64,000 nt of DNA from an uncultured Flavobacteriia bacterium (GTDB lineage: Bacteria > Bacteroidota > Bacteroidia > Flavobacteriales_D > Crocinitomicaceae), in NCBI GenBank assembly GCA_937975705.1, contig CALJTX010000019.1:117748-181747 (forward strand), given 5' to 3'. Both the position numbers and the translations under genes were made by a program. Positions 15,546 through 30,849 of this stretch are shown here, one piece after another. The notes beneath the pieces are model-generated. The model searched no databases and was not told where the DNA came from. It saw nothing but the letters and a program-made list of their open reading frames with translations. Each line of letters opens with the position of its first letter. The stretch's first letter is position 1.

Positions 15546-15849
15546 AATGATCGTTTTTAATTTTTCATTTTTACAATTGAACGCCAAATATAAAAAAACT
15601 TTAGCCCCTTTTCAAAACGAAATTTACATGTTTGCGCTAGCCTAACGTATAATTATTGTATTTCTAACACAAAGTCGGCTATATTGAGTCCATTATCAAA
15701 TTGTTTTCAATCTATACCGCACAAAAATTAATATAGATTTAACATATGTTTGGAGCCTAAAAATACCTACTTACGGTCTACTTGCGAAAAACCAAACTGC
15801 GCTTCTTGGTACTTGCGAATATCAGTACGGGTTTCTACTTCTCAAACTC

Positions 15850-15916: not shown

Positions 15917-16402
15917 ATGCGATTTTATTTAGTTGACAGAATTGAGGAGATTATTCCAGGACAAAAGGCCACTGGAATCAAATGTTGGACTTTATCGGAA
16001 GATTATTTTGCGGAACATTTCCCAGGGTTTCCTATTGTTCCGGGCGTTTTACAAATAGAAACGATGGCCCAACTAATGGGCATCCTTATTGAACATTCAT
16101 ATGCTGCAGCCTATCCAGAGAAAGGGAGGTGTTATCCAATCCTAAGTATTGTTCAAAAGGCAAAATTTAGAGATGTCATCATTCCCGGCGACCAAAGTCA
16201 CATAGAAGTTGTTTTAACCTCTCTCGATACGATGCGTGCTGCCGGTAGTGCAAAATTGCTTGTGGAGGGGAAAGTCCGCGCGGAAGCGGATTTGAGTTTT
16301 ACTATTTTGGAAGCCCAACAAGCAAGTAATAACCCTTTTATTGGTCAACGCGACGAATATTATTTGTCTTTAAATGTTCAACAAACGCTTAAAAAGCGCT
16401 AA
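15917..16402 (+). CDS. FabZ/FabA-family 3-hydroxyacyl-ACP dehydratase (hot-dog fold)
   Basis: 'HFPGFPIVPGVLQIETMAQ' carries the catalytic His and Glu of FabZ-type dehydratases. 161 aa. Confidence 0.8.
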   Translation: MRFYLVDRIEEIIPGQKATGIKCWTLSEDYFAEHFPGFPIVPGVLQIETMAQLMGILIEHSYAAAYPEKGRCYPILSIVQKAKFRDVIIPGDQSHIEVVLTSLDTMRAAGSAKLLVEGKVRAEADLSFTILEAQQASNNPFIGQRDEYYLSLNVQQTLKKR

Positions 16403-17430
16403 TGCTCGCTACCATAACAGCCATCGGATTTTGGGAAAGTGCTATGTTTTCTGTCGACGGCACCTTGGAGCCAAGGTCTGAGTTGTTGCCTAATGAGGCT
16501 ATAAATCAGCGTCAGTTACCTCACTTTAACGCTGCGTTTCGCCAAATTCAACTCGATCCCACACACCCTAATTACCCCAAACAGAGCGATCTTAAAATTT
16601 TGCGCAACGATACAATTGCAGCACTTGTGCTGAGCCAGCAGATGCAGGCTTTACATCAGTGGGGCACTACATTTAAGGAACATGGCGCCCTTTTGGTTGC
16701 GAACAGCAATTTTATCGATGACGACGTACTCGATTTTGAGTCCATAACTACTGCAGTGAGTCAGTTACAAACGGCGCTTGATCCTGCAACTGAAAACAAA
16801 TTGTTTGGTTCTACTATTTCACCTTTATTGCCACTCAGAACGCTAACCAATGGCGCACAGAGTTTTATTGCGCAATATTTAGGATTTTATGGGAGTTCTA
16901 CCACTTACGGGAGTACAGGAATTGCGAGTGTTCAGGCCTTACGAGATGCCTGTAACTTAATCATTATTGATGCAAGCCGCTTGATTTTAGTTGGCGGTTG
17001 TCATTTCGCCAATTTGTTCTCATTTCTAAATAATTGCTTGTTGCTTCATGATACCGAAGGATATGCAGAGGCAAGCGCTGCTAGTTTTTTCATGTTAACA
17101 GCTGCCAATCCAAAGGTGAGCGGCAAGCACAATTTACACATCCTTCATTTTTATCAAAATCTAGAAGAGCTGCAAGGAGAACATGTAGATTGGTTGTTTT
17201 ACGGAGGTGCATTTACGCCGCTTGAGGATGCAAAATTGCTTGCGCGCTGTCAGCATTTGCAATATCAAGAAGCATTTAGCTGGTTTGCTCATACGGGTAA
17301 TCTTGGTGCGGCCGAACTCGGCATGCTGCTTGCGGCTGCGGGCAACTGGCTCAGAAAAGGTCAAACTGCAGTTGTGTTGATTCAAGATGCATTTGGCGTT
17401 CTAGAACTTTTCAAAGTGGAGCACGCATGA
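16402..17430 (+). CDS. KS-like, non-catalytic partner (chain-length-factor-like) protein
   Basis: 342 aa. The region equivalent to the KS active site reads 'YGSTGIASVQAL' (no Cys). C-terminal 'AHTGNLGAAELG' lacks the KS His. TAATG and ATGA coupling to both neighbours. Confidence 0.55.
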   Translation: MLATITAIGFWESAMFSVDGTLEPRSELLPNEAINQRQLPHFNAAFRQIQLDPTHPNYPKQSDLKILRNDTIAALVLSQQMQALHQWGTTFKEHGALLVANSNFIDDDVLDFESITTAVSQLQTALDPATENKLFGSTISPLLPLRTLTNGAQSFIAQYLGFYGSSTTYGSTGIASVQALRDACNLIIIDASRLILVGGCHFANLFSFLNNCLLLHDTEGYAEASAASFFMLTAANPKVSGKHNLHILHFYQNLEELQGEHVDWLFYGGAFTPLEDAKLLARCQHLQYQEAFSWFAHTGNLGAAELGMLLAAAGNWLRKGQTAVVLIQDAFGVLELFKVEHA

Positions 17431-18695
17431 GTTCAGCAAAAGTTTATGTCCTTCACACACATTCGGTGAGTCCGCTAGGGATGGGTAGCGCTGAGTTGTT
17501 GGCAGCCCTAAAAAATCAAAAGCAAGCTGCCGCTGACATCACACAATTTGACCCTGCTGGTTTGGCCCAAACCAAAGCCTGTGAAGTGGCGCCTGCATAT
17601 TTGGCGGGTCTTGACCTTCTTCATGAAGCTTGGCAAATGGTGGCAGCCTATGACCGTAAATTTGCACTTTGGGCCACCGCAGTGCAAAGCGAGCAAGCGC
17701 AACTTCAAGCGCTTTTTAGCAAAACTTCAACACAGCGAACAGCATTATTTTTGGGCTTGGGAGCCAACGCGATCCCCGTCCAACATATCGCCAAATCCGT
17801 TTCTGATTTTACCGCTTTTGGATTGAATCAAGCCATTGCCCAACTAAATGTTCATGTGGGTAAAAAAGCCAATTCGATTTTCAATCATGCCGATTTATAC
17901 GGTAACTATTTTCGCCAAGAAATTGCACCATTTGGCTTTTGTAGGAATTTAATGACGGCATGCTCGAGTAGTACGCAAGCCATTGCTTTTGGTGCTGCAC
18001 ATATTTTGTCCGGACAAGCTGATTTGGTTTTAGCAGGCGGCACCGACTCTATTCTCAATCAGTTTGCCTACATATCTTTTGGCAAATTAGGCGTATTGAG
18101 CCCTGAAGAATGTAAGCCTTTTGATACAGGACGCAACGGTACAATTGCTGGTGAATGTGCCGGATTTACATTGTTGGCATCTGAGCAATTCGTTCGGGAA
18201 AACGGTTTGCAACCCCAGATTGCACTTCTAGGTTATGGCAACAGCATGGACGCTTACAAAATCACTGCGCCAGATCCAAATGGGGCCGGCGTTGAACGCG
18301 CGCTGCGTTGCGCATTACAGATGGCTCAACTATCGCCAGAGGCATTGGATTACATCAATGCCCACGGAACCGGAACGCGATCCAATGACGAAGCAGAGTT
18401 GCGCGCCATTGAACGGGTTGTTGGTTCGGCTGCAGCTAATATTGCCGTGAGCTCGACCAAAGACCGACACGGTCATGCTATTGCAGCCGCGGGTATTCAA
18501 GAATTTCATGTGCTCACTACCTGTATGTCAAACGGACTCGTACCAGCAAACCTCAATTGTAACAATCCAATTCAAACGCCGCTTGAGCTGCCCCTACAAA
18601 CCAATCAAAATCGAAAAATCAAATATGCACTCACCAATAATTTTGCTTTTGGTGGTGTCAATTGTGCTTTAGCACTTGAAAACTTAGCCCTATGA
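17427..18695 (+). CDS. beta-ketoacyl-ACP synthase (KAS I/II-type, Cys-His-His)
   Basis: 'LMTACSSSTQAI' (Cys), 'INAHGTGT' (His), 'KDRHGHAIAAAG' (His), 'NNFAFGGVNCALAL' C-terminus. Confidence 0.85.
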   Translation: MSSAKVYVLHTHSVSPLGMGSAELLAALKNQKQAAADITQFDPAGLAQTKACEVAPAYLAGLDLLHEAWQMVAAYDRKFALWATAVQSEQAQLQALFSKTSTQRTALFLGLGANAIPVQHIAKSVSDFTAFGLNQAIAQLNVHVGKKANSIFNHADLYGNYFRQEIAPFGFCRNLMTACSSSTQAIAFGAAHILSGQADLVLAGGTDSILNQFAYISFGKLGVLSPEECKPFDTGRNGTIAGECAGFTLLASEQFVRENGLQPQIALLGYGNSMDAYKITAPDPNGAGVERALRCALQMAQLSPEALDYINAHGTGTRSNDEAELRAIERVVGSAAANIAVSSTKDRHGHAIAAAGIQEFHVLTTCMSNGLVPANLNCNNPIQTPLELPLQTNQNRKIKYALTNNFAFGGVNCALALENLAL

Positions 18696-19447
18696 ACCTC
18701 GAATTAAAAGATAAAATTGTGTGTATTACCGGTGCCTCAGGTGGGATTGGCTTGGCTCTGGTGAGTGCTTTTTTAGATGAGGGAGCTATTGTTTGCGCTA
18801 CGTATCATCGCAACCCAGATAAAATTGAGCAGCTGCGCGCCACGCTCGATCCAATGATTGGTTCTCATTTATTTGCGTACCCACTCGATCTTCAAAACCA
18901 AGCAAGTCAAAGCGCATGTGTTGCTGCAATGTGTAACGCACATCAGCGCATCGATGTCTTGGTCAATTGTGCAGGTTCGGCCTTAGAAAAACCTTTCTTG
19001 CTCTTGACACCCGAAGAAATTACGCAGCAAATCACCACTAATTTTAGCCAACAAGCACTTTTCACACAGCAAGTAGCTAAGGTCATGCTTGCACAGCGCA
19101 AAGGCAATATTGTCAATATTTCGAGTTTGTTAGCCAAACGTTTGGGTAGGGGAGTGGCTGTATATGCTGCAGCCAAAGCGGCTATTGATCGCTTTACACA
19201 AACACTTGCTCTAGAGGTAGGTAAAAAAGGCATTCGTGTCAACAGCATCAATCCAGGCCTCATTGCCACCAAGATGAGCAAAAATATCCAAGCGAATATG
19301 CCAGCGGAGCTCATGAATATGAGTCCGATTTCGAGGCCGGGCACACCAGAAGAAATTGCACAAGCAGCCTTGTTTTTAGCTTCAGACCGAGCAGCTAGTT
19401 ACATCACTGGCGTTTGTTTATCTGTAGATGGAGGCCTCAGTATTTAA
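18692..19447 (+). CDS. 3-oxoacyl-ACP reductase (FabG-type SDR)
   Basis: 'ITGASGGIGLA' cofactor motif, 'NISS', 'YAAAKAA' (YxxxK). 251 aa. Confidence 0.85.
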   Translation: MNLELKDKIVCITGASGGIGLALVSAFLDEGAIVCATYHRNPDKIEQLRATLDPMIGSHLFAYPLDLQNQASQSACVAAMCNAHQRIDVLVNCAGSALEKPFLLLTPEEITQQITTNFSQQALFTQQVAKVMLAQRKGNIVNISSLLAKRLGRGVAVYAAAKAAIDRFTQTLALEVGKKGIRVNSINPGLIATKMSKNIQANMPAELMNMSPISRPGTPEEIAQAALFLASDRAASYITGVCLSVDGGLSI

Positions 19448-19467
19448 TTCAAATTTATATTTCAAAA

Positions 19468-19863
19468 ATGACACAGAACGAAGAAATTATCGAACAAATC
19501 AAGCAAATCATCCACCAGTCTTGTGGTATTGACCCTGCCGTCATGCATGCGCATTCAACGATTTTTGATGAATTGAGCATCGATTCTATCGATATGGTAG
19601 ACATTTTATTTCAATTGGAAAGACACTATAATATTGAGCTCAAAATTTCTGAAATTGAGCAGCAATCTAAAGTTGAAATGGGAGAGGAACCTTTTGAAGT
19701 AAACCAAATCATTACGCCAAAAGGACTTGAAGTTTTGCGCCGACGCATGCCTGAGATAGATCCCAATCTACTCAAGGAGGGACTGTCTATGTTCGATGTG
19801 ATCAAATTGATCAATATCCAAAGTTTGGCAAATATGGTAGCGCATCAACTCGCTAAAAAATAA
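19468..19863 (+). CDS. acyl carrier protein with an internal insertion
   Basis: ATG at 19468 (the track start 19414 would overlap the end of fabG). 'DELSIDSIDMVDILFQLE' is the phosphopantetheine-Ser/helix II motif. 131 aa versus the usual ~80 aa. Confidence 0.7.
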   Translation: MTQNEEIIEQIKQIIHQSCGIDPAVMHAHSTIFDELSIDSIDMVDILFQLERHYNIELKISEIEQQSKVEMGEEPFEVNQIITPKGLEVLRRRMPEIDPNLLKEGLSMFDVIKLINIQSLANMVAHQLAKK

Positions 19864-19867
19864 AGGT

Positions 19868-21007
19868 ATGCCCGGCGTAATCTATCGCATTGCCGCACAG
19901 GAAGCACTTTATGGTTTTGGAGATCCTATTTTGGATGTCCCGATCCTAAATGAAAGTTTGGGGACCTATCAAGCGCGCATTTGTGCACAATGCGGTATGC
20001 GTATTGTGGATGTCTCATCAATTGAAAATTTACCTCAAACGGATATGCCCTTGTGGTATTTCCACGCCAAAATGATTTTCACGCTTGACTTTCTAAAGGC
20101 GGCAATTCAAGAAACAATTGCGAATCCGAGTGCATTTATTCAATTTGGTTTAAAAATGCAGCCCTCGGCTCAGCAGCATTCTTTGCCGATCGCGTTACAT
20201 GAAACCGAACTCACTTTTCCCTTGTTCTATAAAGGTAGTGTGGTTGCCCAACAAGCCCAACGAATTGAATTAGCTGGAAAAGAGTACGAGTGGCAAATTC
20301 AAATGCCCGCTCAGGTAATGCCTGGGGGCACCTACCGCTTGAATCAGAATGCGGTTTTTGCAGCCATGTTATTGTCTCCATTTCATTTGCATGGTGCCAA
20401 TATGGCCCTGAATTTGAACAGGGGTCTTCGGATCCAGGCCCTGCTTCCGGATTGGCTGCGCATGCGCATTTCCAAACCTTTTACCAAACTGACTTCTTTT
20501 GGATTAAAGCGCATGAATCGAAGCGGTAAGAATTGTCGAATACACCCGAGCGCTGTGGTGGAGGGTTGTGTCTTAGGCGACAACGTGACCGTTGGAGCCA
20601 ACGCTGTGCTCCGCATGAGTGTCATTGGGAGTGGAACCTTCATTGGCGATACCGCAGTTGTGAGTTTTTCGGTGCTGGGGCCAAATAACTTTGTAAGTAC
20701 GGGTAATCATTTGGTCAACAGCCTCACGTACCCCTCTGTTTTTACGATTCATGGCCCTTATCAGTACAGTATTTTTGGCCAGAACACAGCGGTTTTTGCC
20801 ACCATTAATTCAGATATCCGACTCGATTCAAAAACCATCAAAATACCCACAGAAATAGGGATCTGTGACTCCGGTCAAATTTTGCTTGGGGTGGCTTACG
20901 GACACCGTTCTAAAATTGGCGGTTCAAATATCATTGGCGCAGGGCGATTGGTCCCAAATGACTACGTTTTAAATCCGCCAGATTTCATCACACTTCAATT
21001 TGAATGA
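19868..21007 (+). CDS. left-handed beta-helix (hexapeptide-repeat) protein with GlmU/nucleotidyltransferase-like architecture
   Basis: C-terminal hexapeptide repeats 'IHPSAVVEGCVLGDNVTVGANAVLRMSVIGSGTFIGDTAVV'. The N-terminal ~220 aa is of unclear fold. Confidence 0.45.
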   Translation: MPGVIYRIAAQEALYGFGDPILDVPILNESLGTYQARICAQCGMRIVDVSSIENLPQTDMPLWYFHAKMIFTLDFLKAAIQETIANPSAFIQFGLKMQPSAQQHSLPIALHETELTFPLFYKGSVVAQQAQRIELAGKEYEWQIQMPAQVMPGGTYRLNQNAVFAAMLLSPFHLHGANMALNLNRGLRIQALLPDWLRMRISKPFTKLTSFGLKRMNRSGKNCRIHPSAVVEGCVLGDNVTVGANAVLRMSVIGSGTFIGDTAVVSFSVLGPNNFVSTGNHLVNSLTYPSVFTIHGPYQYSIFGQNTAVFATINSDIRLDSKTIKIPTEIGICDSGQILLGVAYGHRSKIGGSNIIGAGRLVPNDYVLNPPDFITLQFE

Positions 21008-22101
21008 TGGCGCAAAATACTTTTTTAATTGGGGCTTACGGCTATACGGCGCAACTCATTGCTGCACAAATGGCAGCAGCGGGCTTGGCTTTTACCGCGG
21101 TGGGGAGGGATCAAACTAAACTTGAGCAACTCCAACAAGAGTTTGTAAATTGTTATGGGTATATCGTTGCGGATATCCAAAATGAAGCCATGCTCGATTT
21201 TTTACAAAAAGGAGCGGTGGTGATAAATTGTGCGGGCCCATTCAATTTGCTTGCGCCTACCTTATTGGCTAAATGTATTGCTGTTGGCGCACATTATATC
21301 GATATCACCGGAGAACAAGAAATCGTAAGGCAAAGTTATGAGCGCTATGCGCGTACGGCTCGGCAGAATGAAATTTGTGTGCTGCATTCAATGGCTTTTG
21401 AATCTGCTCTAACCGATATTTTATTGAGCCATTCCTTGCAAAAGGTAGCGCAGGACGAAATAGAAGAGGTACAATCGTATTATCATATTGGTAGCCAGCA
21501 AATGAGCCCTGGCACCAAACTAACAATGAAGTTGGCCAATTATCATTCCAATTATATAGTTGAGAACCAGCGTTTGTTGCCTTTTGCAAATCAGTTCGCA
21601 AATGTGCCGAAAGGTTTGCCCTTTGAAGCCGCAAGAGTGGTGCCTTATCCAGAGGTAATTTTTGCCTATGAACGACTTCAGCCAAAGCGCGCGGCGTCTC
21701 ATTTTGTTGTGGAGCAAGGCAGCAATCTATCGTTTTCCGGCCACTTCATGAGGCCAGCTCAAACAGACGAAGCGCAACTTCATTCCATAATTGAACGATT
21801 TAAAAAGGTGCAACATGTGGGCCCAGCAGCCACAGACCGGGAAAAGCAACATTTTGAGCTTTATTTGCTGCTGCATACCCACAACGTGACCCATGTGGCC
21901 TCAATAAGCGGGTACAACATGTATGAAATTACGGCAGCGCTTGTCGTATTGACGCTGCAGCAACTCCAATTACGGCCTACTCATTTTGGCGTCTTGAGTC
22001 CTGGGCAATTTTTAGATCAGGCAGGCTTATCATGGCTTTTAGACAACCCTTATTTTACCTTGAATAGTCCAATAACACTTAAAAATGATGCAAAGATTTA
22101 G
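21004..22101 (+). CDS. saccharopine-dehydrogenase-fold NAD(P)-binding protein (putative trans-acting enoyl reductase)
   Basis: N-terminal Rossmann 'FLIGAYGYTAQLIAAQMAAAG', later 'VINCAGPF'. 365 aa, with ATGA overlap to the upstream gene. Confidence 0.5.
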   Translation: MMAQNTFLIGAYGYTAQLIAAQMAAAGLAFTAVGRDQTKLEQLQQEFVNCYGYIVADIQNEAMLDFLQKGAVVINCAGPFNLLAPTLLAKCIAVGAHYIDITGEQEIVRQSYERYARTARQNEICVLHSMAFESALTDILLSHSLQKVAQDEIEEVQSYYHIGSQQMSPGTKLTMKLANYHSNYIVENQRLLPFANQFANVPKGLPFEAARVVPYPEVIFAYERLQPKRAASHFVVEQGSNLSFSGHFMRPAQTDEAQLHSIIERFKKVQHVGPAATDREKQHFELYLLLHTHNVTHVASISGYNMYEITAALVVLTLQQLQLRPTHFGVLSPGQFLDQAGLSWLLDNPYFTLNSPITLKNDAKI

Positions 22102-24811
22102 GTTTTCATTGCATTTATTGATTTTTCCTGTCTTGCAAATGCTTGCCATGTATGTGCTGTTTGCCGGACATTTTTCAACGCTTTGGTTGCTATTAATCGC
22201 ATGCCTTGCGGCATTTTTACTCAATTGGAACTTACATGTGAGTGTTCACCACTTGGTGCATCATCCACCAAAGCACAAAGTCATCCGCAATTTGTGTTAC
22301 CTGATTTCATCTTTACTACTAGGTCTTCCATTTCATTATTACCAGCTCATTCACCGCAATCACCACAACTTTAACAATGAAGAGGGTGATTTTACCAGTA
22401 CGTGGTCATTTCAGAATGGCACAGCAGCACCCCGACCTTTTTGGTTTTACATTCTTTTTTGGTGGATCCCCAAGGTGCCTTTGTCTGTGCAAATTCAAAA
22501 GGCCCGCTCAACGGGTTGGCTGAATGCAAATGGAGCGCGATGGTTGGGTATAGAGCTGTTGTTGCTTGTCTTCTTTTATGTGCTATTGTTCCTCATTTTT
22601 GGTTGGAAAGGATGCTTGTATGCGCTACTCGTTTATGTAGGATGGGTCCTGATAAGTGCGCAGAATTATGGCCAGCATTTGCCTGTCAATGGGCAGGAAC
22701 AAACCACGAGTGTTTACGCAAAATGGTACAATTGGCTGACGCTCAACAATGGTTTACACCACGAACACCATCAAAGACCACAAGTACAATATGACTGTTT
22801 GGAGCCAGATCCAAACATAAACGACTTACAAAAACCGCATTTAACGGCAGGTTTGAGGCTTCAAAAATGGCGTGGCAGTTTTGTGTTGACTTTGCTCCTC
22901 ATGGTTGGGTTGCTCTCTCAACTCCCGCATTTACAAATGACGGGTAGCCTCGATGGTTTTGCTGCCGGAGATTCAGCAGTCTTTCAAGATGCCCGCAGTT
23001 ATGATTCCATTTTTGGCCAAAGCAAGTTTCGATATTACTGGAGCATAACACCTCAAGCAAATGCAAAGCTTGGCTTTCTAACTTCCTGTACGCAGTTTGA
23101 GCAAGCGCTCAAAAAGCAGACACCCGCGCTGGAGTTCCTTAGCTCATCGGGTCAGTTGCGCAAATTTGCAAGGCTGCGGCTCTATCCCAAACAAATGTCG
23201 GCACGTGATTTTTTGAAGATTGCGGCTCAGCACCCACAACTCGGCAAACTCATTTCAAAAGACGGCAAGTCTTTTTTACTCATTGCCGACTATAAGGGGG
23301 CGTCTGTTCCACTCAAAAAAGTTGCGGCATTGCAACAAATGGAGTTTCCTCAAATCAGTCAAATTAGAGGCTTTGGCATGCAAGGGCTGGAGGCGGCGAT
23401 CGCTAGCTCAATGCAAGAAGACATCTTAACGATTACCGGGCTTATATTTATTTTATTTGGAGGTTATTTGTTTTGGCGTTATCGACGGCTTAGTGCAATC
23501 ATTTATTTAGTGAGCAACATGCTTTTGTCTATTCTACTCACTGTTTGTTTGTTCCCTCTTTTCGGTTACCAAATGACGGTAGTGAGTGTACTTGCCCTTC
23601 CAATAGTATTGGTGCTTTCTTTGAGCGATGCGATTCATTTACTCGGAGGAATTGCCAAAGGTCAGACAAGCGCGGTTACTTTACGTAAAATCTGGATTCC
23701 ATCCTTACTGAGCAGCCTGACCACCGCTATTGCCTTTTTTAGCTTTTACTTCAATGATGCACCGAATATGGTACAGCTTGGAATGGTGACCGGAACCGCC
23801 GTTTTATTGGAATTTTTGGTATCTATGGCGCTAGCACAGCAGTTCTTACACATGGTGAATTTGCGCAAAGCGGAAAGTCAGGTTATTTTAAACACCAGTC
23901 ATTTTTTAGAGCGTCGTCAAAAACAAATAGGTTGGGGGCTTTTGGCTTTGGTGCTTGCTGCACTTTTGCTTTTGCCAAAGTTGCGCTTTGAAGCAGCGAC
24001 CGACGACTTCTTTCCAGACGGCCATCCTGTGACCAAAGAACACGCCTTCTTCAGAAGTCAGTTTGATGCACAAAAAGTACTACACCTTTGGTTTGATGCG
24101 ACTCCTGACGACTCCTTGAAACGCATACAAATTGCAAATTGGCTAGACCAACAACATGCGGCGCATTTGTTGCATTGGGAATTCAAGCCGCAGCAAGCTC
24201 AGAAACCATTAGCAGCAAGTATTTATTTTACAGATACCAAGGCAATCGGTGCCTATTACCGACAACTCGAATACAAAGGTGATTTCAAGCGCGAGGGGCT
24301 GGGCTTGCATGCATATAGTCCGTTTGTTGTTTTTGATGTTGTGAACCAACAGGTTGCGGCTTCCTTATTTTGGAGTCTGCTCACTGCGAGTGCAGCTATT
24401 GTATTGCTCATGTTATGGTTGACAAGAAATCCGCTTCAAGCATTGCTGGGCTTTATTCCCAATTTAGTGCCGTTGGCAGCAGTAGTCGTATTTTTCGTGG
24501 TTTTTGACCAAGGCCTCAATATGCTTACTGCGCTCACATTGGTGGTTTGTGTGGGCTTACTCGATGACGACACCATTCACGTTTTGTATCAGAAGTATGT
24601 GTTGCGCGCTCCAGTAGCGCAGATGAATCCGATCATTATACATGCAGCCATATTACTTGCTTTAGGTTTTGGGTGTTTTGTTTTTAGCAATTTCAAGCCA
24701 ACCCGCATATTTGGGGGCGTGAGCGCGCTCGTTTTTGTTATCGGACTCTTGGGTGAACTCACCTTATTTCAATGGATTTTAAATCAGTTTAATCGAGAAG
24801 TTCATGATTGA
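22085..24811 (+). CDS. fusion protein: membrane fatty-acid desaturase/hydroxylase domain + MMPL/RND-type transporter domain
   Basis: Three His boxes: 'HVSVHHLVHH' (aa 51-60), 'HRNHH' (aa 90-94), 'HHEHH' (aa 225-229). These are followed by two blocks of about 5-6 TM helices, each preceded by a soluble loop (aa ~260-908), as in MMPL/RND exporters. Confidence 0.7.
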   Translation: MMQRFRFSLHLLIFPVLQMLAMYVLFAGHFSTLWLLLIACLAAFLLNWNLHVSVHHLVHHPPKHKVIRNLCYLISSLLLGLPFHYYQLIHRNHHNFNNEEGDFTSTWSFQNGTAAPRPFWFYILFWWIPKVPLSVQIQKARSTGWLNANGARWLGIELLLLVFFYVLLFLIFGWKGCLYALLVYVGWVLISAQNYGQHLPVNGQEQTTSVYAKWYNWLTLNNGLHHEHHQRPQVQYDCLEPDPNINDLQKPHLTAGLRLQKWRGSFVLTLLLMVGLLSQLPHLQMTGSLDGFAAGDSAVFQDARSYDSIFGQSKFRYYWSITPQANAKLGFLTSCTQFEQALKKQTPALEFLSSSGQLRKFARLRLYPKQMSARDFLKIAAQHPQLGKLISKDGKSFLLIADYKGASVPLKKVAALQQMEFPQISQIRGFGMQGLEAAIASSMQEDILTITGLIFILFGGYLFWRYRRLSAIIYLVSNMLLSILLTVCLFPLFGYQMTVVSVLALPIVLVLSLSDAIHLLGGIAKGQTSAVTLRKIWIPSLLSSLTTAIAFFSFYFNDAPNMVQLGMVTGTAVLLEFLVSMALAQQFLHMVNLRKAESQVILNTSHFLERRQKQIGWGLLALVLAALLLLPKLRFEAATDDFFPDGHPVTKEHAFFRSQFDAQKVLHLWFDATPDDSLKRIQIANWLDQQHAAHLLHWEFKPQQAQKPLAASIYFTDTKAIGAYYRQLEYKGDFKREGLGLHAYSPFVVFDVVNQQVAASLFWSLLTASAAIVLLMLWLTRNPLQALLGFIPNLVPLAAVVVFFVVFDQGLNMLTALTLVVCVGLLDDDTIHVLYQKYVLRAPVAQMNPIIIHAAILLALGFGCFVFSNFKPTRIFGGVSALVFVIGLLGELTLFQWILNQFNREVHD

Positions 24812-26621
24812 TGCCAAGGCAAGTTCACTCGCTCAAAAAGTATGGGCGCTCAATGGTAACGAAGCGCTTGCTTATGGCGCTTTGCATGCCGGAGTCGCTT
24901 ATTTTGCGCATTATCCAGGTTCTCCGGTAAATGGAATCGAACCCGTTTTGAAGCAACTCAACACACAACATTCTGCCCAGATTACCTTTAACGATGCGCT
25001 CAATGAGCATATAGCGGCTTGCGCTGCAATAGGAGCGAGTATGACAGGCGCGCGCGCTATGTTGGTCATGAAACATGTTGGGCTCAATATTGCTGCTGAC
25101 CCATTGAATTATGTGGGTTATGCGGGAATCAAAGGTGGAATGCTCATTGTGGTGGGGACGGACCCCGGGGCAAATTCAAGTACGGGAGAAGAAGACGTAC
25201 ATTGGTATGCCAAGCAATTCAATTTGCCCCTATTTGAGCCTACAAGCCCACAAGAACTTTATGATTGCTGCCATAATGGATATGCACTTTCTGAAGCGCT
25301 CGGTTTGCCAATCCTTGTATATGTAACAGGACTCATTTGCCATCAGAGCACCCGCGTCAATACCAGACAGGTGGCAAATGAACCACGCCACTATTATTTT
25401 GAGAAAAATAGAGATCGGTATATCAATGTTGGCCAACGCGCCGTTCAAAATCACCGCTTACTGCTGGAAAAAATAGCTGGTTTTGCGCAGACCCATGCTT
25501 TTTTGAAAGTGGACGGACCGCCAAATGCTCCGTTGGCGGTAATCACAAGAGGTAATACAACATTACACTTTCCTGAAATACGCACCTACATCCCGCAATT
25601 AGCCAATTGCACCTGGATTCAGCTGACTGGTGTTTATCCTCTGCCAAAGAATGCCTTGTTGCCACTGCTTGAAGACAAAACAGAAATCATCGTGATGGAA
25701 GATCAAGATGGTTTTGTAGAGCACCTCATCAAAATGGAGTTGTACAATGAGCTCAGTGCAAAAATTCAAGGAAAAAATCTTTTTCCGGCATATGGTGAAT
25801 TGCGCGTTAACGAGCTACTAGAAATCATGTGTCGATACTTTGGCGTTGTGTATCCGTTTGCAGGTTTACCAAGCTTCCCTATTCCGGAGCGTTTGGGTAC
25901 TTTTTGCGAAGGTTGTCCGCATACGGGGAGTTACTTTGCTATTGAGCAAGCCCTACCCGAACAAGAACGTATCATTGGTGGCGATATCGGTTGTTCGTCT
26001 TTACCTCCATTTCGAGCAGATTGGTTATTGTGTATGAATGCTGGAATTGGACTTGCACAAGGAATGGCCCCGTTTGTACAAGCTCAAAAATTAGTCTCTA
26101 CAGGAGGTGATGGTAGTTTTTTTCACGGTGGTTTATTGGCCGTATTGAGCGCTATTCAAAATAAAGTCAATTTGGTACACCTCGTTTTTGACAACAAAAG
26201 TGTTGCCATGACCGGGCATCAGTTATCTGCCTCCACGCAGGTAGCTTATGCAGATTTACTGCGCGCACTAGGCGTTGCATCCTTTTCTGAAGCCAGCGCA
26301 TTTCATCCAAAAGAGCTTGAAGCACTTGTAAAAGAAAAAGAACAGCTCGAGGGGGTTCATGTCATCTGGGTAAGCGGGGCCTGTGCACAAATACCTGATG
26401 CACGTGCTACTTTTAGAAGGGCGCATTACGCACCTCAGATCGATGCCAGTAAATGTGCTTCATGTACCTTGTGTTATGAATCATTGGCTTGCCCCGCAAT
26501 TGATCGGGATGAGAAGGGGCAGTTTCAGATCGATTTGGCGCGCTGTATGCGCTGTGGTGTGTGCCATGAAATTTGTCCGAACGACGCCATTGACTTAGGC
26601 GCAAAAACAGGTCAAGCATGA
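24804..26621 (+). CDS. iorA: indolepyruvate:ferredoxin oxidoreductase alpha subunit-like (TPP + 2x[4Fe-4S])
   Basis: 'LNGNEALAYGALHAGVAYFAHYPGSP' N-terminus, 'GDIGCSSL' TPP region, and C-terminal ferredoxin motifs 'CASCTLCYESLACP' and 'CMRCGVCHEICP'. Confidence 0.8.
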   Translation: MIDAKASSLAQKVWALNGNEALAYGALHAGVAYFAHYPGSPVNGIEPVLKQLNTQHSAQITFNDALNEHIAACAAIGASMTGARAMLVMKHVGLNIAADPLNYVGYAGIKGGMLIVVGTDPGANSSTGEEDVHWYAKQFNLPLFEPTSPQELYDCCHNGYALSEALGLPILVYVTGLICHQSTRVNTRQVANEPRHYYFEKNRDRYINVGQRAVQNHRLLLEKIAGFAQTHAFLKVDGPPNAPLAVITRGNTTLHFPEIRTYIPQLANCTWIQLTGVYPLPKNALLPLLEDKTEIIVMEDQDGFVEHLIKMELYNELSAKIQGKNLFPAYGELRVNELLEIMCRYFGVVYPFAGLPSFPIPERLGTFCEGCPHTGSYFAIEQALPEQERIIGGDIGCSSLPPFRADWLLCMNAGIGLAQGMAPFVQAQKLVSTGGDGSFFHGGLLAVLSAIQNKVNLVHLVFDNKSVAMTGHQLSASTQVAYADLLRALGVASFSEASAFHPKELEALVKEKEQLEGVHVIWVSGACAQIPDARATFRRAHYAPQIDASKCASCTLCYESLACPAIDRDEKGQFQIDLARCMRCGVCHEICPNDAIDLGAKTGQA

Positions 26622-27142
26622 AACAAGAACTGCGCATATTAATAGCCGGGGTTGGCGGGCAGGGCATTCATGGCTTTGTGCGCGTGCTGCAACAAGAGAT
26701 GTACACTCAAGGTTATGAACTGATTTGCGCGCGCTATAAAGGTGGGGCCCAAAGCCTTGGCTCAGTTCATGCAGAAATAAAGATCTTTTTAAGCCCAGCG
26801 CAGGCTAGCGAACAGCAGAGTAGCCAACTGATTCCGGGCACCATCGATATCTTGCTTGGGCTCGAACGCTGGGAAACCCTACGTTTCTTGCCTTTTTGTC
26901 ACAACCAAACCTTCATTGTCTGCGATACCTACACAGAATTTCCGCCAGGAACCAAACGTCAAGATGACCTGCCTTCAATTGATACGTACTTTTCGAGATT
27001 GACCAATCCAATGATAAGCAAAGACTTTGTAGCATTAGCCCACGCTCGGGGCTGGTCAAAATCAGCAGTTCCATTCTTGCTTTTTAATGAGGCTATCGAG
27101 GCGCTTGGCCTAACGACAACTATTCAACAACTAAAACCTTAA
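26618..27142 (+). CDS. iorB: indolepyruvate/2-oxoacid:ferredoxin oxidoreductase beta(gamma-type) subunit
   Basis: 'ILIAGVGGQGIHGF' P-loop-like motif of the POR gamma/IorB family. ATGA overlap with iorA. Confidence 0.7.
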   Translation: MKQELRILIAGVGGQGIHGFVRVLQQEMYTQGYELICARYKGGAQSLGSVHAEIKIFLSPAQASEQQSSQLIPGTIDILLGLERWETLRFLPFCHNQTFIVCDTYTEFPPGTKRQDDLPSIDTYFSRLTNPMISKDFVALAHARGWSKSAVPFLLFNEAIEALGLTTTIQQLKP

Positions 27143-27146
27143 CCAC

Positions 27147-28514
27147 ATGAATTGGAAAGAAAACTCTAGAGTAGCCATGCATTGGCACACCAATGAACAA
27201 GGCAATAAAATTGTTTGTGACCTTTGTCCAAGACATTGCCAAACGCAACCTGGCCAGATGGGATTTTGCAAAGTCAGAGGGAATGTTGATGGAACCTTTC
27301 ATACGTTCAATTTCGGTAAATCGGTGACGGCAACCCAAGAGTGTATTGAAACGGAAGCTGTCAACCATTACATGCCGGGTGCCCGTATCTTGAGTTTGGG
27401 TAATATCGGTTGCATGATGGCTTGCTCTTATTGTCAGAACTGGCAAACTTCTCAAATTAAGCACCTCAATGATGCAAATGTATTTGAGTACACGCCAGAA
27501 CAAGTAATTGAACTTGCGCTTTCCAACGACATCAAAGTCATTTCCTGGACCTACAACGATCCTGTAGTTTGGCACGAATTTGTGCTAGAGACCTCCAGGT
27601 TAGCTAAAGCGGCAGGCCTCACCACCTTATATAAATCTGCGCTATATATTGAGCTTGAACCTTTGCGAGAATTAATTGAAGTGATAGACATTTTCTCGAT
27701 TTCACTCAAGTGCATGGACGATGCGATTTACCGCAAGGAAAACAAGGGAAAATTGCAACCGGTCCTCGATGCTATTGAGCTCATCGCTGCTTCTGAGCGC
27801 CATCTGGAGATTTCACAATTGGTTGTTACGGGCCTCAATGACGATGGCACAGATGCCATTAAAACTGCACGTTGGATGCGCGAAAAGCTCAAACCCGAAG
27901 TGCCTTTACATTTGGTGGCGTATCACCCTAGTTTCAAGTATAAAAAGCCGCGTACTGAACTGTCCACCTTACTCAAGCTGAGAGAACTTGTGATCAAGGA
28001 AGGCTTGGAGTATGTCTATTTAGGAAATGTCTATGCCGACGACATGAGCAATACCTATTGTAAGTCTTGTTCGAATTTGCTTGTAGAACGCTTTGGACTC
28101 TCTGTTCAAGTCCCAGGCCTCGATGCCGATGGAAATTGCAAAAATTGCCATACACCGTCAGTAATCAGAGATGCTTTGGGTGGGCAGCCAACAGAAAAGC
28201 CTGTTTTGGTACCATTTGTTGCCGAGCAAACGCATACTTTTGAGTGGAACGACGAAATCAGATCCGTTCATATTTTCCTGGACAGTCCGCAAAAAGATAC
28301 GGTACGTATCCAATTAAAGCGCATGCCTGCCAATACCATCCATTATCTCGAACTCAATGAAGGGCTCGAGCGCATTATTTTGTCAAAGAGTAGTGCGCAA
28401 GAGCAAGCGCTCATTATTTCAGCCGCATGTCAAACGCCACTGCACATCTTGCCGGTGCTCGACCGCGCACACTTCCCTGTTATTGATGAAACCAAAGCAT
28501 CGAGCTATGCATAA
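27147..28514 (+). CDS. radical SAM enzyme, AmmeMemoRadiSam-system type, with ~110-aa C-terminal extension
   Basis: N-terminal 'CDLCPRHCQTQPGQMGFCKVR'. Radical SAM CxxxCxxC 'CMMACSYC'. Zn-ribbon-like 'CKSCSN...CKNCH'. About 110 more residues with no motif I recognise. Confidence 0.75.
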   Translation: MNWKENSRVAMHWHTNEQGNKIVCDLCPRHCQTQPGQMGFCKVRGNVDGTFHTFNFGKSVTATQECIETEAVNHYMPGARILSLGNIGCMMACSYCQNWQTSQIKHLNDANVFEYTPEQVIELALSNDIKVISWTYNDPVVWHEFVLETSRLAKAAGLTTLYKSALYIELEPLRELIEVIDIFSISLKCMDDAIYRKENKGKLQPVLDAIELIAASERHLEISQLVVTGLNDDGTDAIKTARWMREKLKPEVPLHLVAYHPSFKYKKPRTELSTLLKLRELVIKEGLEYVYLGNVYADDMSNTYCKSCSNLLVERFGLSVQVPGLDADGNCKNCHTPSVIRDALGGQPTEKPVLVPFVAEQTHTFEWNDEIRSVHIFLDSPQKDTVRIQLKRMPANTIHYLELNEGLERIILSKSSAQEQALIISAACQTPLHILPVLDRAHFPVIDETKASSYA

Positions 28515-29634
28515 ACTGACCCAAATTTTAAAACAGCGCGTAGATACAACCAACGCTGCGCCTGTTGTTACGCCTATCTATCAAAATAGTGCATTTGAAG
28601 CGCACTCTCCTTTTTTTTATACGCGTAAGAACAATCCAAATGTCGAAGAACTAGAGCAAGTTTTCTGTGCTTTAGAGGAGTCCGCATTTGCGGTGTGCTG
28701 CTCGACAGGAATGGCTGCCATTTCAAATACGCTCCTGTTATTGAAGCCAGGTGATCATTTGGTCATCAATCAATTGATTTATGGCTGTTCTTATGTGCTT
28801 TTTGAGCGTTTTTGTCAACAGTATCAAATTGAGCTCACTGTGCTCGACCTCACTTCTGATGAAGGAATAAACGCCATGCCGCAAGATGTCAGTATGGTCT
28901 TATTTGAGACCCCAACCAATCCTTTTGTGCGCAGCATTGCTATTGCCGCTGTGGTCAAGCAGGCTAAAAAATGCAATCCGAATTGTGTGGTAGTTGTAGA
29001 CAACACTTGGGCCACTCCTTTATTCCAACAGCCTTTAATGCATGGCGCTGATCTCTCGTTGTATTCTGCAACAAAATACTTTTCGGGACACAGCGACGTG
29101 ATGGGTGGCGTACTCACAACAAATGATCCTGTTCTTGCGCAGCATTTAAGAGAAGCGCGGTTTTATCATGGCGCTATTCTGGATCCAAATAGCGCTTGGT
29201 TGTTGCGCAGAAGCATGCAGACATTCACTATTCGGATGCGCGCACATGGACAGGCCACCACACAAATTAGAGACTGGTTACAGCAGCAAAGTGGGGTGGA
29301 AGCGGTTTTTTATCCTCAAATCGATGGCAGTCAATTGAAAGGTTATGCCACATTATTGTTTTTCACGTTAGCGGAGTCTTTGAGTGAGCGCTACGATGAA
29401 TTTGTGTCCGCATTGCAACTTTTTGATACCGGCACCGGAATGGCATGTGTAACCTCTATGGTGGCCCGGCCATATTCTGGTAGCCATGCCTCCATGAACG
29501 AGCAGCAAAAACAGCAAATGGGGCTTACCCGTCAGCTCGTCAGGCTCAGCATTGGTTTGGAGGAGGTAGATGACCTTATTGCGGATTTAAGCCAAGCTTT
29601 TGAACAAATCGGCGCCAATGAATTGAACGCCTAA
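28507..29634 (+). CDS. Cys/Met-metabolism PLP-dependent enzyme (cystathionine gamma-synthase/lyase family)
   Basis: ATG at 28507 overlaps the rSAM stop (ATGCATAA). PLP-lysine motif 'YSATKYFSGHSDVMGG'. 'TPTNP' and 'DNTWATP' motifs. Confidence 0.8.
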   Translation: MHKLTQILKQRVDTTNAAPVVTPIYQNSAFEAHSPFFYTRKNNPNVEELEQVFCALEESAFAVCCSTGMAAISNTLLLLKPGDHLVINQLIYGCSYVLFERFCQQYQIELTVLDLTSDEGINAMPQDVSMVLFETPTNPFVRSIAIAAVVKQAKKCNPNCVVVVDNTWATPLFQQPLMHGADLSLYSATKYFSGHSDVMGGVLTTNDPVLAQHLREARFYHGAILDPNSAWLLRRSMQTFTIRMRAHGQATTQIRDWLQQQSGVEAVFYPQIDGSQLKGYATLLFFTLAESLSERYDEFVSALQLFDTGTGMACVTSMVARPYSGSHASMNEQQKQQMGLTRQLVRLSIGLEEVDDLIADLSQAFEQIGANELNA

Positions 29635-29644
29635 AGGGCAAACT

Positions 29645-30775
29645 ATGCAGGAGCAGGAAGCATTCACATTATACCGATTAAAAGCACTTGCCATTTGCGC
29701 ACTTCTTGTATTGCACCTTCTACTGAGCTTTACTTGGATACCACAACTCTACGGTATTTGGCCAATCAGTGTGGAGGCACCAAGTATAAGCCTGACTGGT
29801 TTTGCGTCATTTTTGAATCTTTTTGGACTGCTCTTGTTTTTTATTTTGTCGGGCTACACACTCCGAAAAAAAGCGTTCAATCAGGAGCGCTACTTGCTGC
29901 AAAAAGCAAACAAAAACATGTGGCGCTTCTTCAAGTATTATACTTTGCTTTCGCTCATTTTTTATTTGTTGTTGTCTTTTTCAGAGGGGCGCTTTTTGGC
30001 TTTTGATGAATGCACTTTTTTAGTTTCATTTTACCATTTGTGGTTTATTGTTGCCTTGGCCGGGTTCCAATTGTTATTATTTCTTGTGCAGCGATTGAAT
30101 TCAGCCTTAATTAAGAACCTGCGGATACCCGTTGCGCTTCCGCTCTGCATTCATGCGCTTGGATTATATGGACAAGGAGGTGTTTTTTTGAAAACGCCGA
30201 CCCAGTTAGCTGCAGCAACCTTACTCTCTATTGTGGTGTATTTCTTTTGGTTTCTGTACGGCTTCTCACGTCCAAAAGGCCCACTCCATTTGGGCAATAG
30301 ATTTAGTTTGCAGCGCTTATTGAGTTGTATTCTGGTGCTTGGAATCTATTTCTTAGCAAAAACGGCGCTCATTTTCTCTTGGAATTTTACAACTTTTTGG
30401 CAATTGCTTTCATCGTGCATCGATCCTTTGACATTTATCGCTGCGCTAAACATCAGTTTGTGGCTTTTTGAGGTAGCAAATAAAAAGCAATATGCTATTG
30501 ATTCAACGCGGCTCCAATATTTTTTACTGCGTTTTCAACTGCCAATTTATGTGTTTCAGATTCCCCTGATCTTCGTTCTTATTTCGATCCAAGAGATATT
30601 TGGATGCAGGCTGTTTCTAACTGAAAAATACAATTCTCAAGTGCCCAATTGGCAAGAAGCGCCCAGCACTTGGATATTGTTTCACATCCTTTTGATCATT
30701 TTTGCGCTGCTTATGTGGCTGCTCTGGCACTTTAGCAAACAAAAAACCCCTCATTCAAAAGAACAAGGGGTTTAG
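29645..30775 (+). CDS. integral-membrane acyltransferase (Acyl_transf_3-like)
   Basis: About 10 TM helices. N-terminal 'YRLKALAICALLVLH' fits the R..A....V..H start of the acyltransferase-3 family. Confidence 0.55.
   Translation: MQEQEAFTLYRLKALAICALLVLHLLLSFTWIPQLYGIWPISVEAPSISLTGFASFLNLFGLLLFFILSGYTLRKKAFNQERYLLQKANKNMWRFFKYYTLLSLIFYLLLSFSEGRFLAFDECTFLVSFYHLWFIVALAGFQLLLFLVQRLNSALIKNLRIPVALPLCIHALGLYGQGGVFLKTPTQLAAATLLSIVVYFFWFLYGFSRPKGPLHLGNRFSLQRLLSCILVLGIYFLAKTALIFSWNFTTFWQLLSSCIDPLTFIAALNISLWLFEVANKKQYAIDSTRLQYFLLRFQLPIYVFQIPLIFVLISIQEIFGCRLFLTEKYNSQVPNWQEAPSTWILFHILLIIFALLMWLLWHFSKQKTPHSKEQGV
30744..30773 (-). terminator. hairpin likely terminating tRNA-Cys, embedded in the last codons of the acyltransferase gene
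   Basis: 8-bp stem AAACCCCT / AGGGGTTT with a 14-nt loop. A T6 run follows on the minus strand (plus-strand A-run 30738-30746). Confidence 0.4.
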
Positions 30776-30778
30776 ATG

Positions 30779-30849
30779 AGGTCTCAAGCAGATTCGAACT
30801 GCTGTAGACGGTTTTGCAGACCGGTGCCTAACCGCTCGGCCATGAGACC
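30779..30849 (-). tRNA. tRNA-Cys (anticodon GCA)
   Basis: Hand-folded cloverleaf. Acceptor GGTCTCA/TGAGACC. T-arm AGCAG-TTCGAAT-CTGCT. Anticodon loop CTGCAAA. 4-nt variable loop. Discriminator U73, the CysRS identity element. CCA not encoded. 71 nt. Confidence 0.9.

Follow-up and report, generated by a model that had tools for sequence, protein, structure and literature searches.

A natural fusion of a di-iron desaturase/hydroxylase-type enzyme to an MmpL/HpnN-like RND lipid exporter within a conserved Bacteroidota operon

A single gene in the 64,000-nucleotide stretch of DNA analysed here (the window; from an uncultured Flavobacteriia bacterium of the Crocinitomicaceae) encodes a 908-aa protein in which a di-iron enzyme of the desaturase/hydroxylase type and an RND lipid exporter resembling MmpL/HpnN form one chain (Table 1). 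The initial annotation had proposed such a polypeptide, and both of its domain assignments were borne out. The fusion arose in one freshwater Bacteroidota group by the merger of two neighbouring genes of a conserved 13-gene Bacteroidota operon, suggesting that the modification and the export of a lipid are physically coupled. Taken as a whole, the best explanation is a lineage-specific fusion of the Rosetta-stone type that tethers a tailoring oxidation to the export of a lipid/polyketide-like product, a reading considered rather probable. The architecture had also been described as not known to be characterised; this agrees with literature searches, which turned up no relevant paper on the desaturase-RND fusion or its operon, but the automatic JGI annotation of the fused proteins already names both domains (‘predicted RND superfamily exporter protein/fatty acid desaturase’); the NCBI one reads ‘fatty acid desaturase’ alone.

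Table 1. Coordinates in the window of the fused gene, its modules and motifs (aa numbering of the fused protein), and the surrounding operon. Conservation of the His boxes and the NYGQH motif was scored over 40 fused and stand-alone relatives.
Feature	Position	Strand	Basis or conservation
Fused gene, desaturase/hydroxylase module then RND exporter module	22085..24811	+	ORF listing
Di-iron membrane desaturase/hydroxylase module, aa 1-255, 4 TM	22085..22849	+	Pfam PF00487, domain-only AF2
His box 1 HVSVHHLVHH, aa 51-60	22235..22264	+	H51, H55, H59 invariant
His box 2 HRNHH, aa 90-94	22352..22366	+	H90, H93, H94 invariant
NYGQH motif, aa 194-198, TM4 end	22664..22678	+	N194, G196, Q197, H198 invariant
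His box 3 HHEHH, aa 225-229	22757..22771	+	H225, H228, H229 kept in at least 90% of sequences
Fusion junction, aa 252-264, HLTAGLRLQKWRG	22838..22876	+	Stand-alone gene comparison, open frame
MmpL/HpnN-like RND module, aa 265-908	22877..24808	+	Foldseek, PDB profile, hydropathy
Periplasmic loop 1, aa 284-445, 162 aa, mixed alpha/beta	22934..23419	+	AF2 model, hydropathy
TM4 motif SLSDAIH (D515, H518)	23618..23638	+	Conserved, fused and split relatives
Periplasmic loop 2, aa 634-757, ~125 aa	23984..24355	+	AF2 secondary structure, hydropathy
TM10 motif GLLDDDTIH (D827-D829, T830, H832)	24554..24580	+	Invariant in fused clade
Operon upstream part, seven genes	15917..22101	+	Pfam, NCBIfam
FabZ/ApeI-like dehydratase	15917-16402	+	Pfam, NCBIfam
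342-aa weakly KS-like protein	16402-17430	+	Pfam, NCBIfam
FabF-like KS	17427-18695	+	Pfam, NCBIfam
FabG-like KR	18692-19447	+	Pfam, NCBIfam
ACP	19414-19863	+	Pfam, NCBIfam
Hexapeptide/LbH protein	19868-21007	+	Pfam, NCBIfam
Saccharopine-dehydrogenase-family reductase	21004-22101	+	Pfam, NCBIfam
Operon downstream part	24804..30775	+	Pfam, NCBIfam, synteny
Indolepyruvate:ferredoxin oxidoreductase-like alpha subunit	24804-26621	+	Pfam, NCBIfam
Indolepyruvate:ferredoxin oxidoreductase-like beta subunit	26618-27142	+	Pfam, NCBIfam
Radical SAM enzyme	27147-28514	+	Pfam, NCBIfam
Cys/Met-metabolism PLP enzyme	about 28510-29634	+	Pfam, NCBIfam
376-aa protein, no family hit here; Acyl_transf_3 gene position of related loci	29645-30775	+	Synteny

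The N-terminal module matched the Pfam FA_desaturase family (71.2 bits; cut-off, 29.7; aa 34-236), and none of the NCBIfam desaturase, AlkB, and CrtW models matched the fused protein. The three His boxes originally quoted as lying among hydrophobic helices were found letter for letter and correspond to the complete set of the PF00487 superfamily (HX3-4H, HX2-3HH, HX2-3HH), with four TM helices placed within aa 1-192 by hydropathy and an AF2 model. The model of this domain alone had a pLDDT of 92.6, and the top four matches of aa 1-265 in a Foldseek search against the PDB were AlkB and SCD1 (probability, 1.00; TMq, 0.46–0.67), the best fold being AlkB 8sbb (TMq = 0.67), with 6wf2 and 4ymk also among the best matches. 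The Pfam match, the presence of all His ligands, and the AlkB/SCD1-like predicted fold support a di-iron His-box oxidase, predicted to be catalytically intact, in which the NYGQH motif may possibly supply an extra metal ligand. Like AlkB and SCD1, the module has three His boxes and four TM helices, with the di-iron site on the cytoplasmic side, but it is much smaller (~255 aa) and has 12–19% identity to the solved structures. Natural fusions occur elsewhere in this superfamily, including the AlkB-AlkG (rubredoxin) protein (PDB 8f6t) and the cytochrome b5-desaturases, though in these the known partners are electron donors, whereas here the partner is a transporter.

The remainder of the protein had been outlined as a duplicated succession of a soluble loop and a TM cluster, and hydropathy and the AF2 secondary structure recovered this 1+5 helix layout of RND proteins, with 12 TM helices in total (TM1, aa 265-283; periplasmic loop 1; TM2-6; a short cytoplasmic linker; TM7, aa 613-633; periplasmic loop 2; TM8-12). 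Its relationship to MMPL/RND proteins was weak by HMM, decisive by fold, and evident from relatives at 38–42% identity that carry precomputed PF03176 hits. Pfam MMPL (PF03176) scored 11.6 bits, below its cut-off of 20.5, and the NCBIfam models HpnN (TIGR03480; 43 compared to a cut-off of 752, E = 1.4e-11) and HAE3 (TIGR00921; 24 compared to 352, E = 1e-5) matched in part. Foldseek retrieved 311 hits at E ≤ 1e-3, led by MmpL4/5/3 and HpnN (E, 1e-18 to 1e-14; target-normalised TM, 0.58–0.71), including MmpL4 9gi0_B (E = 1.3e-18), MmpL3 (TMt up to 0.71), and HpnN 5khs, and a PDB profile search matched HpnN 5khn (E = 1e-4). The TM10 motif aligns with the G(I/L)xVDDTIH of distant MMPL-Pfam proteins and the TM4 motif with their D..IH forms (IADCIH, VGDSVH), several of these proteins being without the Asp; the conserved Asp/His residues are putative halves of a proton relay. 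Together, fold and sequence support the assignment of aa 265-908 as an MmpL/HpnN-type RND lipid transporter, predicted to be driven by the proton-motive force.

RND-like bundles may instead bind or sense lipids, as in the sterol-sensing domains of HMG-CoA reductase and SCAP, and the module could in principle be a scaffold that presents substrate to the oxidase or regulates it, exporting nothing. The lipid binding of RND/SSD bundles, the retrieval of NPC1, NCR1, NPC1L1, and Dispatched by Foldseek, and the scores short of the curated transporter cut-offs are in keeping with such a role, but it appears quite improbable given that the module has the full set of 12 TM helices and two periplasmic domains, that TM4 and TM10 strictly keep their acidic and His residues, and that an operon variant lacking the desaturase (L015) retains the RND gene, indicating an RND role independent of the oxidase. 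The closest structural matches, MmpL3 and MmpL4/5 of mycobacteria and HpnN of Burkholderia, resemble the module in having 12 TM helices, two periplasmic domains of modest size, and Asp/His motifs within TM4 and TM10; the module is only 11–16% identical to them in sequence, the solved proteins are all without a covalently attached membrane enzyme, and the fused protein belongs to a Gram-negative Bacteroidota bacterium.

The ORF runs uninterrupted from an ATG start through 908 aa and a stop, and full-length orthologues have 900–909 aa and 64–77% identity. An assembly or frameshift artefact joining two genes had to be weighed, as distant relatives have two separate genes and an apparent second fusion (P0096) lies on a short contig riddled with frameshifts. 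Signs of such an error were nevertheless absent at the present junction. The frame was open across it in 11/11 related loci (46–77% identity), drawn from MAGs and metagenomes of independent origin, and 90%-identity clusters of the fused protein held 10–126 member sequences from NCBI, JGI, ENA, and Logan, on contigs of up to 603 kb. Because the fused open frame recurs in many independent assemblies the fusion is genuine, and an artefact, now scarcely credible, is effectively refuted. Apparent alternatives were also set aside: P0096 is unreliable as a second independent desaturase-RND fusion (3.4-kb Logan contig L014, RND gene in several frameshifted pieces), P0073 is simply an RND ORF extended upstream in another frame, and the UvrA-like C-terminus of P0007 was read as a chimeric contig end and not as a different architecture.

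A comparison of fused and split genes in relatives, as suggested with the original observation, placed the desaturase-RND fusion in one clade only among the best 150 of 1.84 billion representatives. In all five of the distant split loci inspected, a desaturase gene (265–278 aa) lies directly upstream of an RND gene (676–690 aa), with spacings of +88, -4, +1, -17, and +11 nt, within the same conserved operon as the fused gene (5/5). In other lineages the same desaturase is instead fused to the hexapeptide-repeat (LbH) protein of the operon (P0121 aa 421-629 compared to the window protein; 35% identity, E = 4e-27).

This distribution also bears on whether the fusion is neutral, a read-through in which the loss of a stop codon was tolerated and the modules work as separate proteins with no gain from channelling. 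In the split loci the two genes lie end to end or overlapping (-17 to +88 nt), and one small mutation therefore suffices to fuse them; fusions arise readily in this operon, as the other partner of the same desaturase elsewhere shows; and the pathway can do without the fusion, which could be almost neutral, because one clade alone is fused and L015 does without the desaturase. The junction is, however, not that of a simple read-through. Stand-alone desaturases end 8–20 aa past a conserved C-terminal PHL motif and stand-alone RNDs begin with a leader of ~20 aa, whereas in the fused protein the leader is absent and the PHL motif is followed by ~10 residues and then by TM1 of the RND module, i.e., ~25–30 residues of desaturase tail and RND leader have been trimmed to a ~10-residue linker. 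Further, the six full-length fused proteins all have H252, L253, A255, and G256, as well as the first TM1 residues S265 and F266, and the fused state persists through divergence to 46% identity. The AF2 model of the whole chain is of high confidence (pLDDT, 91.7; linker blocks aa 251-300, 73–88), and its pTM of 0.80 suggests a defined arrangement of the two modules. A neutral origin is thus held to be unlikely, if still of some weight.

The gene order upstream of the fused gene is identical in three related loci (L001, L012, and L013). KS, KR, ApeI-like DH, ACP, and RND genes are all present in the operon, a set shared with the aryl-polyene/flexirubin clusters, in which type II KS, KR, ApeI-like DH, and ACP likewise occur with an RND/MMPL exporter in one operon. 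Aryl-polyene clusters generally activate an aryl starter through an adenylating enzyme or TAL and comprise a LolA-like carrier, KS/CLF, KR, DH, ACP, and an MMPL exporter. Profile searches found no AMP-binding, TAL, or LolA-like domains among the 13 operon genes, and the operon differs in lacking an aryl-activating adenylation enzyme, a tyrosine ammonia-lyase, and a LolA-like carrier and in possessing an indolepyruvate:ferredoxin oxidoreductase (IOR)-like enzyme, radical SAM, Cys/Met PLP, and LbH proteins, a saccharopine-dehydrogenase-family reductase, and the His-box oxidase; on this gene content, classification as an aryl-polyene/flexirubin cluster was rejected. The 342-aa protein matches FabF only marginally (E = 0.47) and is not similar by BLASTP to the KS next to it, and its designation as a CLF is a guess. 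A cispentacin-type AmcE/AmcF assignment was rejected (scores well under the cut-offs and lower than those for FabZ/FabF). The operon shows no gene for a partner of the RND in the periplasm or outer membrane, and promoter and terminator scans across it gave results at chance level. A tRNA (30779-30849) was the only Rfam match.

In the favoured reading of a tethering fusion, adjacent and translationally coupled desaturase and RND genes would have been the ancestral state, later fused. The active site of the di-iron module would lie on the cytoplasmic side of the inner membrane, and, as the desaturase termini and the start of RND TM1 would all be cytoplasmic, the joining would need no extra helix, the ~10-residue linker pinning the oxidase beside TM1. 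An acyl chain would be made by the type II FAS/PKS-like enzymes of the operon (KS, putative CLF, KR, DH, putative enoyl reductase, and ACP), possibly from a starter provided by the IOR-like 2-oxoacid:ferredoxin oxidoreductase, and passed by the LbH protein to a membrane acceptor. The membrane-embedded chain would then be oxidised by the di-iron module, through desaturation or hydroxylation as proposed here or perhaps through ketolation, and the tethered RND module would take up the product laterally and carry it outwards from the inner membrane, towards either the periplasm or the outer membrane. Because the desaturase is fused to the LbH protein elsewhere, it would be placed physically between acyl transfer and export. 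Fusion would provide fixed 1:1 stoichiometry and proximity, for which the split systems presumably use a non-covalent complex; if the fusion is of the Rosetta-stone type, the separately encoded desaturase and RND of split operons are therefore predicted to interact. We infer the physical coupling of oxidation to export, together with the substrate and product of the fused protein. More tentatively, and as a possibility rather than a probability, the LbH acyltransferase, di-iron oxidase, and RND exporter may constitute a physical membrane synthesis-export complex for a new class of exported Bacteroidota lipids, with the oxidase-RND and oxidase-LbH fusions mapping its contacts and the IOR-like enzyme giving starter acyl-CoA as well as reduced ferredoxin to the oxidase and the radical SAM enzyme.

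The hand-off of substrates from biosynthesis to RND/MmpL-type exporters has so far been approached through non-covalent complexes, such as that of MmpL5 with the acyl carrier protein AcpM, which MmpL5 binds in a physical link to biosynthesis (PMC12346298). A natural oxidase-RND fusion would offer this hand-off with fixed geometry and 1:1 stoichiometry in a single polypeptide tractable for cryo-EM and mutagenesis and, should the synthesis-export complex prove true, a ready single-chain target for direct enzyme-to-RND lipid transfer. The fusion also flags a conserved, uncharacterised 13-gene lipid/polyketide operon of freshwater Flavobacteriales. A precedent in arrangement is the lysophospholipid transporter/acyltransferase pair LplT and Aas, a lipid transporter and a lipid-modifying enzyme that are likewise encoded side by side in many bacteria and as one ORF in others, and that have been shown to interact physically (PMC11416262). 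LplT-Aas, however, combines an MFS transporter with an acyltransferase/acyl-ACP synthetase, compared to an RND transporter with an oxidase, and serves import and repair as opposed to export. An MFS-acyltransferase fusion of the LplT-Aas type was observed at the end of L015.

The fused gene forms one ORF in the ORF listing, with an ATG start and 908 codons, and the initial annotation, which from sequence alone had read it as a desaturase/hydroxylase and an RND-type exporter in one chain, was correct in both its observation and its architectural interpretation. The three His boxes lie at the places it had quoted (HVSVHHLVHH, aa 51–60; HRNHH, aa 90–94; HHEHH, aa 225–229), accompanied by an additional conserved motif (NYGQH, aa 194–198), and hydropathy indicates four hydrophobic helices in aa 1–192. 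Past aa 192, an RND-type pattern of TM1 (265–283), a 162-aa loop, five TMs, a short basic linker, TM7 (613–633), a loop of ~125 aa, and five further TMs bears out the duplicated layout of loop and TM cluster that had been claimed.

Coordinates of features in the window
Feature	Position	Strand	Remark
ExbB-ExbD-ExbD-TonB set with a PBP-like gene	12532–15587, 11370–12278	-	divergently upstream of the operon
13-gene operon	15917–30775	+	tightly packed, start/stop codons mostly overlapping; conserved in fused and split form
Operon genes	15917–30775	+	FabZ/ApeI-like DH, weakly KS-like 342-aa protein, KS, KR, ACP, LbH, saccharopine-dehydrogenase-like, fusion, IOR alpha, IOR beta, radical SAM, Cys/Met PLP enzyme, 376-aa protein
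ACP	19414–19863	+	149 aa from a TTG start
LbH (hexapeptide) protein	19868–21007	+	
Desaturase-RND fusion	22085–24811	+	
PLP-enzyme/radical SAM overlap	28357–28514	+	158 nt; longest PLP-enzyme ORF starts at 28357
tRNA gene	30779–30849	-	marks the operon 3′ end
Genes for T9SS-tailed proteins	30898–33776, 36534–39077	-	downstream of the operon

For the N-terminal module, PF00487 (FA_desaturase) matched aa 34–236 (71.2 bits in Pfam, where the gathering cut-off is 29.7). No desaturase, AlkB, or CrtW model of NCBIfam was matched, and the module therefore forms a small subfamily of its own (~255 aa). Across 40 aligned relatives, fused as well as stand-alone, H51, H55, H59, H90, H93, H94, and H198 are invariant and H225, H228, and H229 are kept in at least 90% of sequences. 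Modelled alone with AlphaFold (pLDDT 92.6, pTM 0.90), the module has as its sole meaningful PDB neighbours AlkB (8sbb_A, E 1e-3, TMq 0.67; 8f6t) and SCD1 (6wf2, 4ymk), all at probability 1.00 and the closest enzymes to it by fold. Together, the Pfam match, the conserved histidines, and the AlkB/SCD1-like model argue for an intact membrane di-iron oxidase, for which desaturation, hydroxylation, and ketolation are indistinguishable from sequence.

The profile signal for the C-terminal module was faint. Pfam MMPL scored 11.6 bits (below the cut-off of 20.5), NCBIfam HpnN matched aa 532–636 (E 1.4e-11), HAE3 matched at E 1e-5, and a PDB profile search returned HpnN 5khn at E 1e-4, such that the curated MMPL/HpnN cut-offs of Pfam and NCBIfam were not reached. 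The proposed MMPL/RND identity was upheld instead by fold and motifs. A full-length AlphaFold model built from 59 sequences (mean pLDDT 91.7, pTM 0.80) gave 311 Foldseek matches in the PDB at E ≤ 1e-3, led by MmpL4 (9gi0_B, 1.3e-18), MmpL5-AcpM (9dp6), MmpL3 (target-normalised TM up to 0.71), and HpnN (5khs), with NPC1-like proteins and Dispatched further down. By fold, the transporters nearest to the module are MmpL3/4/5 and HpnN. Motifs in TM4 (SLSD515AIH518) and TM10 (GLLD827DDTIH832) do not vary across the fused clade and are also conserved in split relatives; the TM10 motif aligns with xVDDTIH in distant proteins with MMPL Pfam matches, and this conservation is what knowledge of the RND family would lead one to expect of a working proton relay. 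The fold matches and motifs place the module in the RND superfamily with a predicted MmpL/HpnN-like fold, the structure model settling its identity.

A search of 5.8 billion proteins recovered five more 90%-identity clusters (900–909 aa, 64–77% identity), each with 10–126 members drawn from NCBI, JGI, ENA, and Logan, and the longest contigs bearing the fused gene reach 603 kb. The gene also occurs in ten MAGs among the GTDB species representatives scanned, labelled Crocinitomicaceae, Cryomorphaceae, Lishizhenia or Bacteroidota, plus one Sphingomonadales. The frame is open across the junction in all 11 related loci, including L011 (46% identity), in which the fusion extends through periplasmic loop 1 or further before the contig ends. 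The open frames and the many independent database members exclude an assembly or sequencing artefact, and the fusion is real. JGI automatic annotation names both halves of these proteins; NCBI names the desaturase alone. The Sphingomonadales contig (L010, VHBC01000005.1) carries a fused gene of 64% identity, like those of the Bacteroidota MAGs, and is probably mis-binned or mislabelled. The last ~90 residues of the most divergent fused homologue (46% identity; near 11300–11556 of L011, aa ~430–518 of protein P0007) are UvrA-like (PF17760) and lie at the contig end, probably a chimeric assembly end.

Architectures were judged on the 150 best matches of a HMMER search run exhaustively over 1.84 billion representatives. 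Among these 150, the fused form was confined to this clade (P0004 at full length; fragments P0007 and P0096), ~90 other matches were RND proteins on their own, or fragments (~660–720 aa for the closest, which are full-length), and ~55 were stand-alone desaturases of ~240–300 aa; fusions made independently in unrelated families may lie outside these best 150 matches. An apparent in-frame read-through from desaturase to RND in P0096 (L014, Logan DRR333404 contig) was rejected as a second fusion, the RND gene there being broken into several frames, and is likely a sequencing error. The fused form is kept in the 11 related loci, and in each of the five split loci inspected (L012, L013, L018, L019, L020) a desaturase gene (265–278 aa) lies directly upstream of the RND gene (676–690 aa), with spacings of +88, -4, +1, -17, and +11 nt, respectively. 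Beyond a conserved PHL motif, stand-alone desaturases run on for 8–20 residues, and RNDs encoded separately have a ~20-residue leader ahead of TM1; in the fused proteins PHL(252–254)-TAGLRLQKWRG runs straight into TM1. The loss of both desaturase tail and RND leader at the junction points to fusion by loss of a stop codon together with shortening of the joint to a linker of ~10 residues. In the fused clade, conservation is higher in the RND module (68–80% identity) than in the oxidase module (51–69%). The fusion is a clade-specific Rosetta-stone event in a conserved operon of freshwater Flavobacteriales.

As far as their contigs extend, the split loci share the gene order of the window: DH, 342-aa protein, KS, KR, ACP, LbH, saccharopine-dehydrogenase-like, desaturase, RND, IOR-alpha, IOR-beta (indolepyruvate:ferredoxin oxidoreductase-like), radical SAM, PLP enzyme, and an Acyl_transf_3-like gene, whose position is occupied in the window by the 376-aa protein. 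The fusion is built from two known families and is not a new kind of system; the operon is of a lipid or polyketide type, and no paper on the fusion or on this operon was found in the literature searched. Acyl-ACP is the donor for LpxA/LpxD-type LbH acyltransferases. The saccharopine-dehydrogenase-family protein may work in trans as an enoyl reductase, in the manner of Rv2953 of M. tuberculosis. The IOR-like enzyme has its own 2x[4Fe-4S] domain and, speculatively, could supply reduced ferredoxin as well as an acyl-CoA starter. With 131 aa in orthologues, the ACP is of unusual length, its PP-binding domain spanning aa 27–85 of the 149-aa ORF product ahead of a C-terminal extension of ~60 residues. 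The true start of the PLP enzyme is probably near 28510, because its orthologue in the related locus L001 has 373 aa.

A distant RND protein (P0024, 25% identity; L015 10001–11995) belongs to the same operon type without a desaturase, the RND gene directly following LbH and the saccharopine-dehydrogenase-like gene shifted downstream; L015 ends with an MFS-acyltransferase (LplT/Aas-like) fusion. A distant desaturase (P0229, 33% identity; L016 10001–15557, L017 4358–9914) occurs in a small cluster with LGT-like, LbH, cupin, class-V aminotransferase, and radical SAM genes and without KS or RND, which suggests a mobile sub-module of desaturase, LbH, and radical SAM. In other lineages, desaturase homologues (P0121 and P0158) carry the operon's LbH protein at their C-terminus (35% identity, E 4e-27 to the window's product), a second, different Rosetta-stone fusion in the same pathway. 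The desaturase-less operon, the RND-less clusters, and the LbH fusions mark the RND as a core component and the oxidase as an accessory tailoring enzyme repeatedly associated with LbH, and the fusions position the oxidase between acyl transfer and export. That the RND module serves as a lipid-presenting scaffold and not an exporter is unlikely, as its relay residues are conserved and it is present in operons lacking the desaturase.

One chain holds two intact modules on a very short tether. Their orientations are compatible: by the known SCD1/AlkB and MmpL3/HpnN topologies, with which hydropathy and model helices are consistent, RND TM1 starts in the cytoplasm, where the two ends of the desaturase also lie. 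The whole-chain pTM of 0.80, above expectation with 28% of residues arbitrarily placed relative to the rest, hints indirectly at a defined interface. In the proposed mechanism, the di-iron module would oxidise a membrane-embedded acyl chain of the operon product, the adjacent RND module would then extract the oxidised product from the inner membrane via the proton gradient, and the fusion would set a 1:1 ratio and proximity. The fusion may also be nearly neutral, being easily made and present in one clade only, with the pathway existing without it. The value of the fusion is that it predicts an enzyme-exporter complex and provides a single polypeptide in which the passing of lipids to RND transporters can be studied. 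The partners known from natural fusions with His-box enzymes are electron donors, cytochrome b5 among them, and no transporter is known as such a partner. The AlkB-AlkG protein of 8f6t likewise joins a His-box enzyme to an electron donor, whereas the partner here is a transporter. Non-covalent physical coupling of an MmpL transporter to biosynthesis is documented for MmpL5-AcpM (PMC12346298). The nearest precedent in concept is LplT/Aas, in which the genes for a lipid transporter and a lipid-modifying enzyme lie side by side, some bacteria have the two fused, and an interaction between them has been shown (PMC11416262).

The ExbB/ExbD/TonB arrangement beside the operon recurs in L001 and, it appears, in L011, and seems to be conserved synteny in the clade. 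Of the Por_Secre_tail proteins encoded downstream, one is copper type II monooxygenase-like and may have a haem/cytochrome c N-terminus, another is an esterase, and a third is a PKD/Ig protein; their T9SS tails confirm a Bacteroidota origin.
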